From Planctomycetota bacterium (GTDB taxonomy: Bacteria > Planctomycetota > UBA11346): DNA of 36,605 nucleotides. Of the stretch, positions 1-20,230 are shown piece by piece. The notes under the pieces are model-generated. The model worked only from the letters and a program-made list of their open reading frames with translations, was not told the origin of the DNA and made no database searches. Both the position numbers and the translations under genes were made by a program. The DNA is taken from contig JBBQTJ010000002.1 in NCBI GenBank assembly GCA_038213315.1, positions 1-36,605 of the forward strand, in the 5' to 3' direction. The first letter of the stretch is position 1; each line of letters opens with the position of its first letter.

Positions 1-1500
1 ATGCCAGCTCGGAATCCCGTTGCCGCCGTCCGTACAGCGCAGAATGGTGGACCTAGTGTAGGTCATCAGCACGCGATAGGGATTGTTCCAATCCACCACG
101 CAGGCACCTGCATCGCCTTCCGTGGTCAGCGACCAGGCCTCATCGCCCACCGTGCGCTGGCCGCCATTGTCCTGGGTGGCGGCGAACAGCACCGCTGGTT
201 GGGTGGGATGCTGGGCCAAACGGCCGACCAGAGTGGTGGCCAGGCCGCTGTTGAGGCTGCGGAACACCGGCAGGGGGCCCTGGGCGGTGTCAGTGACGAA
301 GACGCCACCGTCGCAGCCGACCCAAAGCTGGTTGGGCACGCCGCGCGGGAACACCAGGGTGTGCACGTCGGCATGCACATTGTGACCGATGAAGGTCGGC
401 TGCGCGCGGAAGGCGTTGCCCTGCGGCCGCACCCGTAGCCGCCAGATCGAAGATGACCACACCGAGGTCGCGGTCTCGCCGATCCTGACCACATTGCCCA
501 CGTCCACCGAAACCGTTGAGCCGCCGCAGTAGAGGGTGTCCACATCGCCGGGATCAACGACCATAGCAAGGTCGTACCAGCCCTGGTCGCCGACGAATGC
601 GCCCAGGCCAGCGGGCACCGGTGTCCACGCCACCTGCCGCCAGCGGCCAGTGCCGGCGGCGTTAATGCGGATACGCCAGATGTCGCCATTGGCGCGCACC
701 GCATACACCACGTCGATGCGTTCGGGGTGGACCGCCAGGGTGATCCGACCATTTCCGGCGGGAAATGCGGCGGCGGCGATCTGACCCACCACCGTCCAAG
801 TGATGCCGGTATCGTTCGAACGGAGGATGCTCGCCGGCAGGCCAGGACCCCCATTGCGCACCGCCGCGAAGAACACGCCACGCACGCACACGACGCTGCT
901 GACATCCCGGTTGTCCCGATTGGGCCCGGCGGCAAACGGCAGGGCGCACTGCTGCCAGGTCTGCACTACGCCCACCAGGCCACGCCGGTAGAGCCCGATG
1001 CTGGTGGCGCCGATGGCCCGTTCCGGGTCCGTGGGATCGACGGCGATGGCATAGAAGCCCTGGCTACGCAGCGCCGTGCCGGCGACGGCCTCAGTGGTCC
1101 AAGTGCGTCCGCCGTCGCTTGAGACGATCGGGCCGACACCGAAGGCCACGGCGGTCCCGTTAAAGCCCTCGCCGGTACCCACGAAGACCTGGTCGGGTTG
1201 GTCGGGATGAATCGCGACGGCACCGATCGCCAAGCTGTCGGCCCGGCCACTGAGGCGCAGAGGATCGCCATCAGGTGGGTCCATGAGCGGTCGCCACGAC
1301 ACTCCGGCGTCGTCGCTACGCCACACGCCGCCAGTATTGGTACCGGCGTAAATCACCTCGCCGTACCGGGACAAAGCGATGGACGGCACGCGCCCTGAGA
1401 CCGGCGGACGAAGGACGGCCTGGCCGTTACGCATCACCGAAGGACCGATGGCGGTCCAGGCGGCGGGGACAGGGGCGGGCAGAAGCGGGTCGGCGGGCAT
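1..1500 (-). CDS. BNR/Asp-box repeat beta-propeller protein (VPS10/GH74/sialidase-like fold); 3'-partial
   Basis: Not in the ORF track. Hand translation from ATG 1500 stays open to base 1: MPADPLLPAPVPAAWTAIGPSVMRNGQAVLRPPVSGRVPSIALSRYGEVIYAGTNTGGVWRSDDAGVSW...VSSDGGRTW...LRSNDTGITW...QGWYDLAMVVDP...VHADVHTLVF...GCDGGV...TQDNG. Three clear SxDxGxxW Asp-boxes; no signal peptide. Confidence 0.85.
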   Translation of the reverse strand, partial: MPADPLLPAPVPAAWTAIGPSVMRNGQAVLRPPVSGRVPSIALSRYGEVIYAGTNTGGVWRSDDAGVSWRPLMDPPDGDPLRLSGRADSLAIGAVAIHPDQPDQVFVGTGEGFNGTAVAFGVGPIVSSDGGRTWTTEAVAGTALRSQGFYAIAVDPTDPERAIGATSIGLYRRGLVGVVQTWQQCALPFAAGPNRDNRDVSSVVCVRGVFFAAVRNGGPGLPASILRSNDTGITWTVVGQIAAAAFPAGNGRITLAVHPERIDVVYAVRANGDIWRIRINAAGTGRWRQVAWTPVPAGLGAFVGDQGWYDLAMVVDPGDVDTLYCGGSTVSVDVGNVVRIGETATSVWSSSIWRLRVRPQGNAFRAQPTFIGHNVHADVHTLVFPRGVPNQLWVGCDGGVFVTDTAQGPLPVFRSLNSGLATTLVGRLAQHPTQPAVLFAATQDNGGQRTVGDEAWSLTTEGDAGACVVDWNNPYRVLMTYTRSTILRCTDGGNGIPSWH

Positions 1501-1506
1501 GGGAAC

Positions 1507-1743
1507 TCAGCCGCCGTCGGCGGCGTCTTGCAGACGCTGACGGTATTCGCGCATCAGGTCGGAGAGGGGCGGCGGAGCATCGGTGGGCAGCGCCCCGGGA
1601 TCGACGGGAACCTCGGGCGGCAATTCGTCCTCGACGTCCTTGTTGGGATCTTTGACCGTGGTGACCCGGTTACGCTGGTTCATGAACCATAACAGGCGCT
1701 GCTCCGCCCCGCTGGCTTCGCTATCATTGAGATCATCAGGCAT
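1507..1743 (-). CDS. small acidic/Pro-rich hypothetical protein (78 aa), in frame with the downstream propeller gene
   Basis: Fills the gap between the collagen gene (2-nt gap) and the propeller gene (6-nt gap); TGA-GTT-CCC-ATG junction. Confidence 0.7.
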   Translation of the reverse strand: MPDDLNDSEASGAEQRLLWFMNQRNRVTTVKDPNKDVEDELPPEVPVDPGALPTDAPPPLSDLMREYRQRLQDAADGG

Positions 1744-19300: not shown

Positions 19301-19580
19301 GTTCGATGTTGGTCACCAGGGACAGCAGGGGGGCGATCAGACCGGCGGGGTCGATGCCGCCCGCCACCGAGCCGAGTTGACCTGCTGCAGCACCGCCAGC
19401 AGCGTGCAATGGCCCAGCGTCGATGCCGATGCTGTCGGTGATCCCGGCGATCGCCGTGACATCAATCCCGGGCAGGCTGACGCTGATGCCGAAGTGACTG
19501 GCCAAGTTGCCCACCGCCGTCGGGACATCACCGATGCCTAAACGGGTACGCAGCCCGTCGACCAGGGCGCAGTCGGTCAT
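16350..19580 (-). CDS. large alpha-helical repeat protein, tape-measure candidate
   Basis: 1076 aa, Ala/Leu-rich, with recurring [LI]DPxxxxxP[LV] helices about 23-24 aa apart; coupled into the tail operon. Confidence 0.65.
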   Translation of the reverse strand: MTDCALVDGLRTRLGIGDVPTAVGNLASHFGISVSLPGIDVTAIAGITDSIGIDAGPLHAAGGAAAGQLGSVAGGIDPAGLIAPLLSLVTNIEQLASADPAAVLTRITARVSGGSDQGLAKLQRVLGVVSEGANDSAITGLAALGRALLPALPESPLAPLGAWGGGITAFLSLSGGLMAVESRSRLIQQSPATARLRLEPLRSGRLAALAQWGSSDLPERVAAAPEDPAVAAQIVAYLRELTTTVHDLEDAVGTAEYALAYDDPQRAALQLVAVEPLLQGTPAEPLHALCTDLAGRVGPVIARAGGAEGPGLDDQVDAALALIGRLTAAVGDLDALAIAAPVRNAIGSLTSGLTTVADGISTGVGAVTTALHAIRDAVLAVDLRPLTDAVRTVVQPLAEALERLDDLLTGVMSGISDAMALAKTAITTAKNAILLAATTVKDAFDKLALAVHTLDLPGKVALLQDGINDVAAELNRIRLEPFFDTSSEVMSTAADALRLVPVDILPDDLKQKLNEVSATVRAIDFEGQVRVPLTTQLNTLLSELDTDVLGQIAVFHQQLVTFLTSIDPAGPIAQLETKFDNDLIAPLLALDPDQLLAPVTAAIAQVQQRIAAIDLRTAILGPVEEGFARILSAIDAANPASALQPLADRLTAARTQIETALHLQQWTDTLDQTYGAVQLLLDRLDLAVLLPKLEAGYQLLLNGLRDIPGGGPLGAIVTMLMQKALPVSPDSWQTVMRWLAEGGAAAEVQARMEAGRRDLLAIGALLDDVDVAVAVGRLGAMHGRLRSAVAGLAADAPLRVRFAAALERSPAERLAALSAGLDRLRAAAANGAAALIPLVASGFSHTDLARTRLLFGLSPLSELKSQALGLCRRFGVDPTGRDLGAVFADILAALRPSKVLAALTPLVLALKGKLAELVSVGLIEPLKSGIQAVRDLLARIDLAPVVAELSAIHAAVRGQVAALQPSTLLGPVLDGFDTVRDHLATYDPLAPARVAITAFKQAVAELAAPNSPVRPSVLFGGVVSAHHEITSAVAAIDVRNLLRPVLDALDALVVQLDTGLASTEDAFADLQSALPA

Positions 19581-20230
19581 GGCGCGGCCGGTGGTGGCGA
19601 GGTGAAGATCCTGGTGAGCGCTCCCATGGCCTCACCCAGGCCGGCCGTGGCCGCTCGCACACCATCGAGCGCTGGCTTCACCGGGGCCACTGGGTCGCCC
19701 AGGGAAGGCACTGACCCCAACAAGTCGGGAAGTTCCAGGCCAGTCAGCCCCAGATCCGCCAGCAGGTCCAGGTCAGCATCAAGGTCGGCGCCAAGCTCAT
19801 CAACCGGGGTGGGCGGTTCAGGCGGCTCGACATATTCGCGCAGCACCAACCGATAGCGCACATGGTCGGCCCAGTCGTTGGACTCAAGCACCTCGCACTC
19901 CTCGACCAGCACCCGCTCCAGCTTGGTGGCGGTGACGATATCGGCCACGAAGGCCAGCGGTTCACCCGCCAGATGGCGCTCGCGCACCGCCGTCAGAAAG
20001 GCATCACGCAAGGGATCGCCCTGCAGACTTCCATGGATCTCCACCGCCAGACTCTCGTGACCCAGGTCTTGCTGAAGGTCCCCATCCAAGCCCGGAATCC
20101 CCATGCGTGCTAGGCGCCTGCGCTCGACGGCGCGGATCGCCGTGATGCCGGTCACCTCCCAGTCGCCAAGCATGGGTTTGATGATCATGGCTCGCATTAG
20201 CTCCGGCGGAGGAGCTTCATCGGCCGGCAT
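19577..20230 (-). CDS. Mu gpN (DNA circularisation N-terminal)-like / tube initiator protein
   Basis: RRRLARMGIPGLDGDLQQDLGHESLAVEIHG...GEPLAFV...VRYRLVLREYVEP. The true start may be 20197 or 20188. Confidence 0.6.
   Translation of the reverse strand: MPADEAPPPELMRAMIIKPMLGDWEVTGITAIRAVERRRLARMGIPGLDGDLQQDLGHESLAVEIHGSLQGDPLRDAFLTAVRERHLAGEPLAFVADIVTATKLERVLVEECEVLESNDWADHVRYRLVLREYVEPPEPPTPVDELGADLDADLDLLADLGLTGLELPDLLGSVPSLGDPVAPVKPALDGVRAATAGLGEAMGALTRIFTSPPPAAP

Follow-up and report, generated by a model that had tools for sequence, protein, structure and literature searches.

Which kind of system is encoded by a gene cluster that holds the parts of a contractile phage tail among ordinary chromosomal genes? 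The question is raised by a 36,605-nt stretch of DNA (hereafter the window), which is the whole of contig C2 (JBBQTJ010000002.1) of the planctomycete genome under study, G000 (GCA_038213315.1). A chain of open reading frames (ORFs) on the minus strand runs through the ORF lists without a break from position 20230 to position 1 and continues on a second contig, C34; with its C34 part the cluster measures about 29 kb, and a giant repeat protein forms its end. Taking the whole reading together, we consider it probable that the cluster encodes the contractile tail of a headless, phage-tail-derived particle belonging to a distinct lineage that moves between phyla, and that the planctomycete acquired it horizontally from a lineage now seen in Burkholderiales. 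It is genes that we have read, and the formation of a particle from them is our inference.

A coupled contractile tail module without head genes

The chain comprises 19 genes, joined mostly by 4-nt start/stop overlaps and otherwise by gaps of at most 38 nt, the largest clear gap being 38 nt. The count includes a 114-aa ORF between the spike and gp25 genes, which we regard as a genuine gene because it is conserved at 62-79% identity in the 45 listed of 50 matching related loci. Sheath, spike and gp25-type sheath initiator proteins score over the Pfam cut-offs and the tube and hub proteins under them, and baseplate J too is supported by Pfam (Table 1). An earlier note, made from the letters alone, had described 19 coupled genes with a contractile tail core, and this description was borne out by the ORF lists, Pfam, PHROGs and fold searches, with weak matches for tube and hub, a tip identified by position and motifs, and an I protein identified by position and a weak lead. 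Its statement that there is a single sheath agrees with the one PF17482 match in all of G000, and the split of hub and spike that it reported is seen in the separate genes g08 and g09. Its single tube did not survive, since a second gene with a tube fold, g01, was seen by a Foldseek search of the model. The fold searches that it had proposed gave a tube fold for g01 and a terminator fold for g03. Profile and sequence searches of solved structures for g01, g03, g12, the tip, g15 and the C-terminus of g16 gave chance-level matches or none, and NCBIfam returned nothing useful for ten cluster proteins.

Neither the cluster nor the genes beside it on the two flanks showed a capsid, portal, terminase, integrase, AAA+ ATPase or lysis domain. 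The upstream region (20.8-36.6 kb) encodes FHA-kinase, LeuD, GAF-HD, PGM, PurSL, CNNM and signal peptidase and holds no head, portal, terminase or integrase gene, in accordance with what had been claimed of this side. To the left of the window, where head genes would have pointed to a prophage, C34 could be read: the giant last gene is followed by native genes, with no head genes among them. After the g18 stop come convergent TPR/EAD11, 153-aa and FHA genes (C34 9148-11063), then ADH-like, FGGY kinase, Na/H exchanger and PrmC genes. The trio of TPR/EAD11, 153-aa and FHA genes is native and not part of the island, because it is kept in relatives that lack the cluster. Ordinary genes flank the cluster also in the carrier genomes G001 and G002-G004, the Sorangium, G003 and Rhodospira loci included. 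When G000, a bin of 81% completeness, was searched for head and packaging genes with TerL_ATPase and Phage_portal, neither was matched, and TerL_ATPase and Terminase_6N found none in four of five other carrier genomes, including a complete one of 14.8 Mb. In the fifth, a single terminase match shares the contig of the cluster, at a distance of about 309 kb, the remaining matches being elsewhere in the assembly on different contigs.

At the front of the cluster an AT-richer spacer of 486 bp separates g01 from a tRNA-Leu gene, which is likely to be the boundary of the acquired region and the branch point of the assemblies. The claim of an intact 5' end at a promoter stands in its first half, the gene chain starting at g01 at position 20230; the promoter was not confirmed, a sigma-70 scan having placed sites on the + strand only and none on the operon strand. 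A repeat of the tRNA end was sought at the far boundary and none was found, the longest shared word being 11 nt, and a neighbouring tRNA does not characterise the family, as none of 9 related loci has one. In the regions around the C34 flank gene in four relatives none of the six window-side flank proteins was matched, and no empty site was shown.

Two observations concern the surroundings. Beyond the tRNA-Leu a gene at 20852-21703 (minus strand) encodes an anti-sigma-type kinase with FHA and HATPase_c_2 domains. At the end of C34 (1-1872), about 9 kb from the cluster, a DUF3987 gene (E 1.3e-73) adjoins a tRNA-Glu (2753-2828). DUF3987 is typical of primase/helicase genes of mobile elements, and the two may represent a separate integrated element.

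A family spread over phyla

A pattern scan of species-representative genomes yielded 136 relatives, the best 80 of which were examined; among these 80 the sheath identity is 40-81%. They come from Pseudomonadota (alpha, beta), Actinomycetota, Thermodesulfobacteriota, Myxococcota (including the complete genome of Sorangium cellulosum So0157-2), Acidobacteriota, Gemmatimonadota, Cyanobacteriota and Chloroflexota. The synteny search that had been suggested thus found the same gene order across eight phyla: as far as the DNA reaches, g01, (g02), g03, sheath, tube, g06, tape-measure slot, hub, spike, tip, gp25, J, I, g13, g14 and g15 follow each other, and in four extended loci there come next a collagen fibre, BNR-type proteins (one to three, of 800-2,900 aa) or both, and then unrelated genes. 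No further gene family conserved beside the cluster was seen in the related loci. The sheath tree requires 17 changes of phylum label, compared with a minimum of 7.

In a representative library of 1.84 billion proteins, 116 clusters match the sheath at E ≤ 1e-30. Among phages, 227 INPHARED records match it, all below 60% identity (33% or less), the best at 24.8% over 90% of the query, and IMG/VR holds two loci at 26%. A literature search found no description of this family, with overlap with the supplementary data of PMC11126660 being possible.

Some features of individual members were noted. Many sheath relatives of 43-52% identity (P0250-P0262) have a length of 550-700 aa and align in two separate segments, which suggests that the family includes sheath variants into which a domain has been inserted. 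Two record titles may not reflect the organism: the sheath of L062 (titled Jannaschia sp. R86511) nests among Actinomycetota, and that of L017 (Streptomyces sp. SID13031) groups with Kribbella in a clade supported at 99. Directly upstream of g01, on the opposite strand, L062 carries a gene for a BTAD/SARP-type activator (7132-8049, minus strand), with similar ORFs in nine actinobacterial-type loci; the activator is a candidate dedicated regulator, and the window is without it. In S. cellulosum So0157-2 (L021) a separate Phage_GPD (VgrG-like) gene (2829-3926, E 4e-16) lies 1.2 kb upstream of the first gene of the cluster, beside a fragment of a TonB-dependent receptor.

Host and probable acquisition

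Every named relative of PurSL is a planctomycete, with identities of up to 74%. On the other side, the ADH-like gene of C34 has orthologues of 58-66% identity in 10 of the 12 relatives from its own family, whereas eight genomes from other families have none, and of four relatives in which the region was compared three retain the ADH-FHA-153-TPR order. Because of these relationships we take both flanks to be native and the host to be a planctomycete, as the earlier note had thought probable. The cluster has a different affinity: a close sheath is absent from the relatives of G000, one of 30 having a distant match at 30% identity, and the sheath falls in a clade supported at 100 with three Burkholderiales/Pseudomonadota genomes, at 78-81% identity. 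A plasmid with a close sheath was not found at 1e-10. Metagenomes of sediment, freshwater and microbial mats, produced by 16 studies, contain near-identical copies of cluster plus flank (window 17000-24000). Between runs the depth of the cluster relative to that of the flank varies, and some strains of this planctomycete may be without the island.

Gene by gene

The features are collected in Table 1, and presence counts given for g01, g02, g12 and g14 are from tblastn against the 80 loci.

Table 1. Genes of the cluster and the tRNA at its front, in order of transcription (window positions; - is the minus strand)
Feature	Position	Strand	Size	Assignment	Basis
tRNA-Leu	20716..20799	-		anticodon TAG	ARAGORN; upstream of g01
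g01	19577..20230	-	217 aa	tube-fold protein, probable tube initiator (Mu gp43/Afp7 class)	first gene of operon; fold of model
g02	16350..19580	-	1076 aa	accessory protein rich in Ala and Leu; candidate for cargo or for a tape-measure-like protein of the lumen	
g03	15508..16347	-	279 aa	predicted tail terminator (gpU fold) with inserted beta domain	fold of model
g04	14083..15483	-	466 aa	tail sheath	PF04984 and PF17482 over cut-off; phrog_279 3.8e-48; only sheath in G000
g05	13544..14044	-	166 aa	tail tube	weak Phage_tube_2 (18.5 bits, under cut-off); directly after sheath
g06	13062..13547	-	~160 aa	tail assembly chaperone	position; conserved part starts near GTG at 13547
g07	11986..13059	-	357 aa	tape-measure slot; Pro/Ala/Arg-rich	position
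g08	11033..11989	-	318 aa	baseplate hub (gp27/gpD type), separate from spike	Phage_GPD 15.7 bits (under cut-off); VgrG_rel 2.7e-11
g09	10386..11036	-	216 aa	central spike (OB domain and beta-helix)	Phage_base_V over cut-off; DUF2345 weak; phrog_9992 7e-12
tip	10045..10389	-	114 aa	PAAR-like spike tip	position and motifs
g10	9578..10048	-	156 aa	gp25-like sheath initiator	Sheath_initiator 37.5 bits and GPW_gp25 28.2 bits, both over cut-off
g11	7758..9581	-	607 aa	baseplate wedge J (gp6 type)	Baseplate_J 53.3 bits; phrog_6 2.2e-40; PDB wedge proteins 5e-6, 3e-4
g12	6214..7803	-	529 aa	second wedge protein	gpI/gp7 position; in 44/80 loci
g13	5478..6191	-	237 aa	CarboxypepD_reg-like and PASTA domain protein	
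g14	4953..5450	-	165 aa	PASTA-domain protein	PASTA 27 bits, over cut-off
g15	3341..4987	-	548 aa	conserved protein, fibre region	
g16	1746..3344	-	532 aa	collagen-repeat tail fibre	Collagen 110 bits; tail-fibre PHROGs down to 2.4e-41
g17	1507..1743	-	78 aa	small acidic protein	
g18	1..1500	-	N-terminal 500 aa of ~2,900 aa	repeat protein (BNR/sortilin-like)	rest on contig C34, 17614-11120

The first gene, g01, has no Pfam, PHROG or NCBIfam match. Its AlphaFold model (pLDDT 63) finds in the PDB, by Foldseek, a Mu baseplate chain (3.7e-6) and the diffocin baseplate (1.3e-5), followed by the Milano and pyocin R2 baseplates and, at lower ranks, by chains of about 224-232 aa from the baseplates of PVC, Afp, Streptomyces coelicolor and Anabaena. 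The search output does not name these last chains, which we take to be initiators of the Pvc7/Afp7 type. From the model, g01, which is present in 52 of the 80 loci, is probably the tube initiator. For g03 (pLDDT 83) Foldseek gave the phage 812 neck protein (1.9e-6) and also the pyocin R2 collar and lambda gpU, and the VIA Z-scores were 13.6-12 for phage terminators, 12.3 for the pyocin R2 collar, 11.9 for the Mu terminator, 10.1 for the PVC terminator and 9.5 for T4 gp15; the model thus identifies it as a gpU-type tail terminator.

The tube protein g05 is conserved at 45-95% identity in 79 of the 80 loci, the G001 tube being 95% identical, and a comparison of g05 with g06 showed that they are not paralogues. 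No family match was found for g06 in Pfam, PHROGs or NCBIfam; relatives, present in 78 of the 80 loci, align from residue 25-32 of the long ORF. In the cyanobacterial loci L074-L077 the g06 match (at about 12.0-12.65 kb) comes in two pieces, which lie in different frames in L074, the one locus checked. A programmed frameshift, of the sort known for the tail chaperones of phages, could account for this, and so could an indel; the g06 of the window is a single ORF. A Pfam or other family match was likewise not obtained for g07, which has only its termini and short motifs in common with its 546-aa counterpart in G001. The slot that it occupies measures 1.0-2.2 kb in 57 of 57 loci.

Searched against the PDB, the family profile of the hub g08 scores best with proteins of extracellular contractile injection systems (eCISs), namely the VgrG-like protein of the S. 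coelicolor contractile injection system (CIS; 8e-18), Anabaena All3320 (2.4e-10) and AlgoCIS (5.4e-9), followed by Mu gp44 (1.4e-7), pyocin R2 (1.6e-7) and Afp8 (2.9e-7). The tip protein has no Pfam or PDB match, and its motifs PGAAG and GPPAAP are invariant. A 291-aa long form of g10 was rejected, the N-terminal part being an Arg-rich off-frame sequence that is an artefact of an overlapping frame. For g12 there is no Pfam, PHROG or PDB match; an Atlas match to Tail_P2_I at 0.80 is weak and serves as a lead only.

In the distal region PASTA and CarboxypepD_reg domains were found in all 15 g13 homologues scanned. PASTA domains bind peptidoglycan, and g13 is, as judged from its sequence, probably a distal baseplate or cell-wall-binding protein. 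The second PASTA protein, g14, is present in 20 of the 80 loci, many of which end before it. Homologues of g15, which has no Pfam, PHROG or PDB match, are 27-53% identical and occupy the same position in G001-G004, and those of g16 do so in G001, G002, G004 and G005. The small g17, which has no family match, has a counterpart of 49% identity in G001 and is possibly a fibre chaperone. The last gene, g18, probably encodes a fibre or receptor-binding protein. Its closest long relative, in G001, has 2,911 aa, and a tblastn search with this homologue matched C2:1500-4 (residues 22-529) and C34:17611-11120 (residues 736-2911), about 206 residues between the two contigs being unassembled; internal repeats probably explain the contig break.

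A variable slot and the question of cargo

A variable slot in the conserved order lies behind the first gene. In 29 of the 46 loci where both g01 and g03 were seen, the two abut, with no g02 between them; a single g02 of about 1,080-1,110 aa is present in 7, the window being of this type, and in 10 a second protein of about 850-955 aa follows g02. A Pfam scan covered seven second-slot proteins, with those of Chloroflexota and Cyanobacteriota outside it, and matched Zn_dep_PLPC (Zn-dependent phospholipase C) in five, three of them over the cut-off, and nothing in the other two. In Burkholderiales loci of another clade three large proteins lie upstream of g03; the front one or two resemble g02, and the last gave weak BNR/sortilin matches in two of the three scanned. 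In Chloroflexota loci a g01-like gene, a protein of 1,130-1,143 aa and one of about 860 aa stand together after the tape-measure slot, the position where Mu has its initiator. The match between g02 and the 1,130-1,143-aa protein was obtained in L079 only, at 24% identity. From this arrangement g01 and g02 appear to behave as one movable block.

For g02 itself there is no match in Pfam, PHROGs or NCBIfam, and Atlas gives hypothetical proteins only; the protein is rich in alanine (18%) and leucine (16%), has no strongly hydrophobic segment by Kyte-Doolittle analysis and is present in 34 of the 80 loci. Since most loci are without it, g02 is dispensable for the tail. It might have a role as cargo or in the lumen, an idea encouraged by the tape-measure-related effector of Streptomyces davawensis.

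Proposed assembly and action

From gene content, folds, synteny, distribution and flanks one can outline how a particle would form, what it would target, how it might carry a cargo and how it would act. By analogy with Mu and pyocin, hub g08, spike g09, the PAAR-like tip and the initiator g01 would form the centre along with g07, the protein of the tape-measure slot, for which g06 would act as chaperone, and the gp25-like initiator g10 together with J (g11) and I (g12) would build the baseplate. Tube g05 and sheath g04 would then polymerise on the baseplate and be capped by the gpU-type terminator g03. The two PASTA proteins, g15, the collagen-like fibre and the ~2,900-aa repeat protein may bind the target envelope, through which contraction would push the spike, without an AAA+ ATPase. 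The initiator and the helical, 1,076-aa g02 could form a cargo module loaded through the initiator, to which the phospholipase-C protein would be added in some relatives.

A wider proposal is put forward tentatively, and we hold it to be doubtful: the cluster would stand for an undescribed, ATPase-independent class of contractile injection system that crosses phyla and has a portable loading module of g01 plus g02 (in many members also the ~900-aa phospholipase-C protein), the payload being packed via the initiator as the tape measure is and the PASTA proteins aiming the particle at bacterial walls.

If particles are made, spread across phyla and possible delivery of cargo would need no ATPase loader, and a compact, phage-like chassis would be at hand in the cultured carriers Variovorax rhizosphaerae, Rhodospira trueperi, Neoroseomonas lacus, Nocardioides jejuensis and Sorangium cellulosum. 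The locus would also be a record of DNA, about 29 kb of it, that was recently transferred between Planctomycetota and bacteria resembling Burkholderiales. An ATPase and a cap are the markers used in surveys of eCISs, and searches for tailocins rely on lysis cassettes inside one genus; a lineage with neither, although it is conserved from Actinomycetota to Proteobacteria and present in a planctomycete, would be missed by both.

Points against, and alternative explanations

Several points weigh against the reading of a horizontally acquired, headless particle and against the cargo idea attached to it. The cluster is known from its genes alone, and no RNA run is listed for the junction stretch. 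Assignment of the tip, the I-like wedge, the chaperone and the tape measure is by position, to which motifs are added for the tip and a weak lead for I. Among the 19 proteins Pfam finds no lysis or secretion genes that would account for the release of a particle. For the cargo, g02 is without a recognisable domain and the window itself without a phospholipase gene. The GC and tetranucleotide composition of the island does not set it apart from the genome, so the argument for transfer is a purely phylogenetic one. G000 is a fragmented bin, 81% complete and with 3.5% contamination. Finally, Logan contigs of four runs from four studies hold both sides of the tRNA-Leu, and all break inside it and none bridges it; the depths across it (32/28, 10/13, 33/53 and 7-9.5/14.6) differ in two of the four.

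It could be that the cluster is a member of the Tme-harbouring CIS group of S. davawensis (Nagakubo et al. 2024, PMC11126660), although we consider this unlikely. As described in that paper, the group forms a sheath clade distant from the studied CISs and occurs in Actinobacteria, Proteobacteria and Chloroflexota, its largest ORF lies upstream of the baseplate genes, it has a separate tip protein, and a peptidoglycan-binding protein at the end of the cluster attaches the particles to the producer's own envelope; the word 'ATPase' does not occur in the main text. Our family, too, is phage-like, has members in Actinomycetota, Proteobacteria and Chloroflexota, and possesses a separate tip and distal PASTA proteins expected to bind the wall. 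However, the group is defined in PMC11126660 by a 2,247-aa Tme with an N-terminal DUF4157 domain, the large tape-measure-related protein proposed there as cargo, whereas g07 has no Pfam match and the slot is too short for tme in 57 of 57 loci. Their tube initiator is placed between Tme and the spike, whereas here it is the operon's first gene, and one of their clusters is described as lying on a plasmid, whereas our sheath has no plasmid match at 1e-10. We set the cluster apart as a distinct lineage, to which the Tme group, compared here by its description, may be kin.

Another explanation to which we assign a low probability is a cell-associated or cytoplasmic system which, instead of being released as a weapon, acts on its producer, for regulated lysis, for the release of DNA or in development, on the pattern of Streptomyces and Anabaena. 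The lack of a lysis cassette and of secretion genes in the cluster would fit this, as would the PASTA domains, considering that the wall-binding protein described for S. davawensis fixes the particles to the cell's own envelope, and the hub is closest to the CIS hubs of S. coelicolor and Anabaena. Nevertheless, no strongly hydrophobic segment was detected (Kyte-Doolittle) in g02, g07, g12-g15 or the N-terminus of g18, the great variability of the giant fibre genes has the look of a diversifying recognition of targets, and unicellular bacteria without development are among the carriers of the family.

It is very improbable that we are dealing with the remnant of a decaying prophage, or with a phage's tail module separated from head genes elsewhere in the genome. 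The gene order of the cluster is Mu-like and its chaperone and terminator are of phage type, head genes could be unassembled in a bin of this completeness, and the DUF3987 gene and tRNA-Glu lie 9 kb beyond the cluster on C34; but all 19 ORFs are intact and coupled, the same headless cluster recurs in eight phyla at 50-80% sheath identity, the two terminase families are absent from four of the five other carrier genomes, and neither INPHARED nor IMG/VR contains a close phage relative. That the contig is an assembly chimera at a conserved tRNA-Leu, with the cluster coming from a Burkholderiales organism in the same samples, is scarcely credible either, for although the nearest sheaths are Burkholderiales ones and the contigs break and the depths shift at the tRNA as described, the other end of the cluster runs unbroken into C34, where the ADH-like, FHA, 153-aa and TPR flank has its orthologues and synteny in same-family relatives, and both sides are present in all four runs, at near-equal depth in two.

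Comparison with known systems

The reading of a headless particle of a distinct lineage can be set against the described classes of contractile machine. Profile searches against solved chains place the sheath at 4e-5 from phage 812, 0.002 from FI-type, 0.017 from S. coelicolor CIS, 0.054 from pyocin and 0.19 from Anabaena sheaths; judged by these E-values it would be about equally far from every solved sheath. With type VI secretion systems (T6SSs) the cluster has in common, by ancestry, a sheath, tube-fold proteins, a gp25-like initiator, a hub/spike and a PAAR-like tip. It differs in having one phage-type sheath instead of TssB/TssC, and a terminator, chaperone and fibres, and in the cluster no ClpV or membrane-complex (TssJLM) domains are found.

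The eCISs of the Afp, PVC and MAC types resemble it in being headless, in their horizontal spread between phyla, in the spike tip and in variable large proteins as possible payloads. The sheath, gp25, baseplate J and tube initiator that mark Afp/PVC systems are all present in the cluster, and the N-domain of the hub scores best against VgrG-like proteins of the eCIS type. Surveys of eCISs use an Afp15-type AAA+ ATPase and an Afp16-type cap as core markers (Chen et al. 2019). In contrast, the 19 proteins contain no AAA/ATPase domain, nor do the flanks in G000 and G001; hub and spike are split and not fused as in the VgrG-like Afp8; the chaperone is of phage type and the tape-measure slot lies upstream of the hub; the tube matches Phage_tube_2 weakly and no eCIS NCBIfam model; TIGR02243 reaches 21 bits compared with a cut-off of 155.8; and no Afp or PVC sheath is among the PDB matches of the sheath profile. 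Afp7 carries LysM (Chen et al. 2019), which was not matched on g01. For PF14065 (Pvc16_N, DUF4255) there was no match in G000, the control likewise having matched nowhere. The assertion that none of the listed markers of the described classes is in view is upheld: neither an AAA+ ATPase nor a lysis domain is seen in the 19 proteins, and the NCBIfam models for eCISs score far under cut-off.

The closest likeness is to phage Mu and to R-tailocins such as pyocin R2 and the Mu-derived R-syringacins: one sheath, one tube, a chaperone, a tape-measure slot, a split hub and spike, gp25, J and I, and a terminator/collar of the gpU type. The Mu order is sheath-tube-chaperone-TMP-hub-spike-W-J-I-fibre, which the cluster matches, and the best structural match of g01 is the Mu baseplate chain. 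Like an R-tailocin, the cluster is a complete tail module without head or packaging genes and without an AAA+ ATPase. It differs from R-tailocins in that no lysozyme, holin or repressor domain is found in the 19 proteins or adjacent genes, although small holins could escape Pfam, and in being spread over diderm and monoderm phyla instead of one genus. Its sheath is remote from that of pyocin and at most 33% identical to those of phages, and further differences from Mu and tailocins are the PAAR-like tip gene, the initiator at the front of the operon, the optional slot for large proteins and the distal proteins of PASTA, collagen and giant BNR type. The suggestion of a distinct, possibly undescribed CIS subtype is supported, with a qualification: a cross-phylum family for which we found no published description is there, but its gene set is non-canonical only relative to Afp/PVC, and it comes close to a tail or tailocin of the Mu type.

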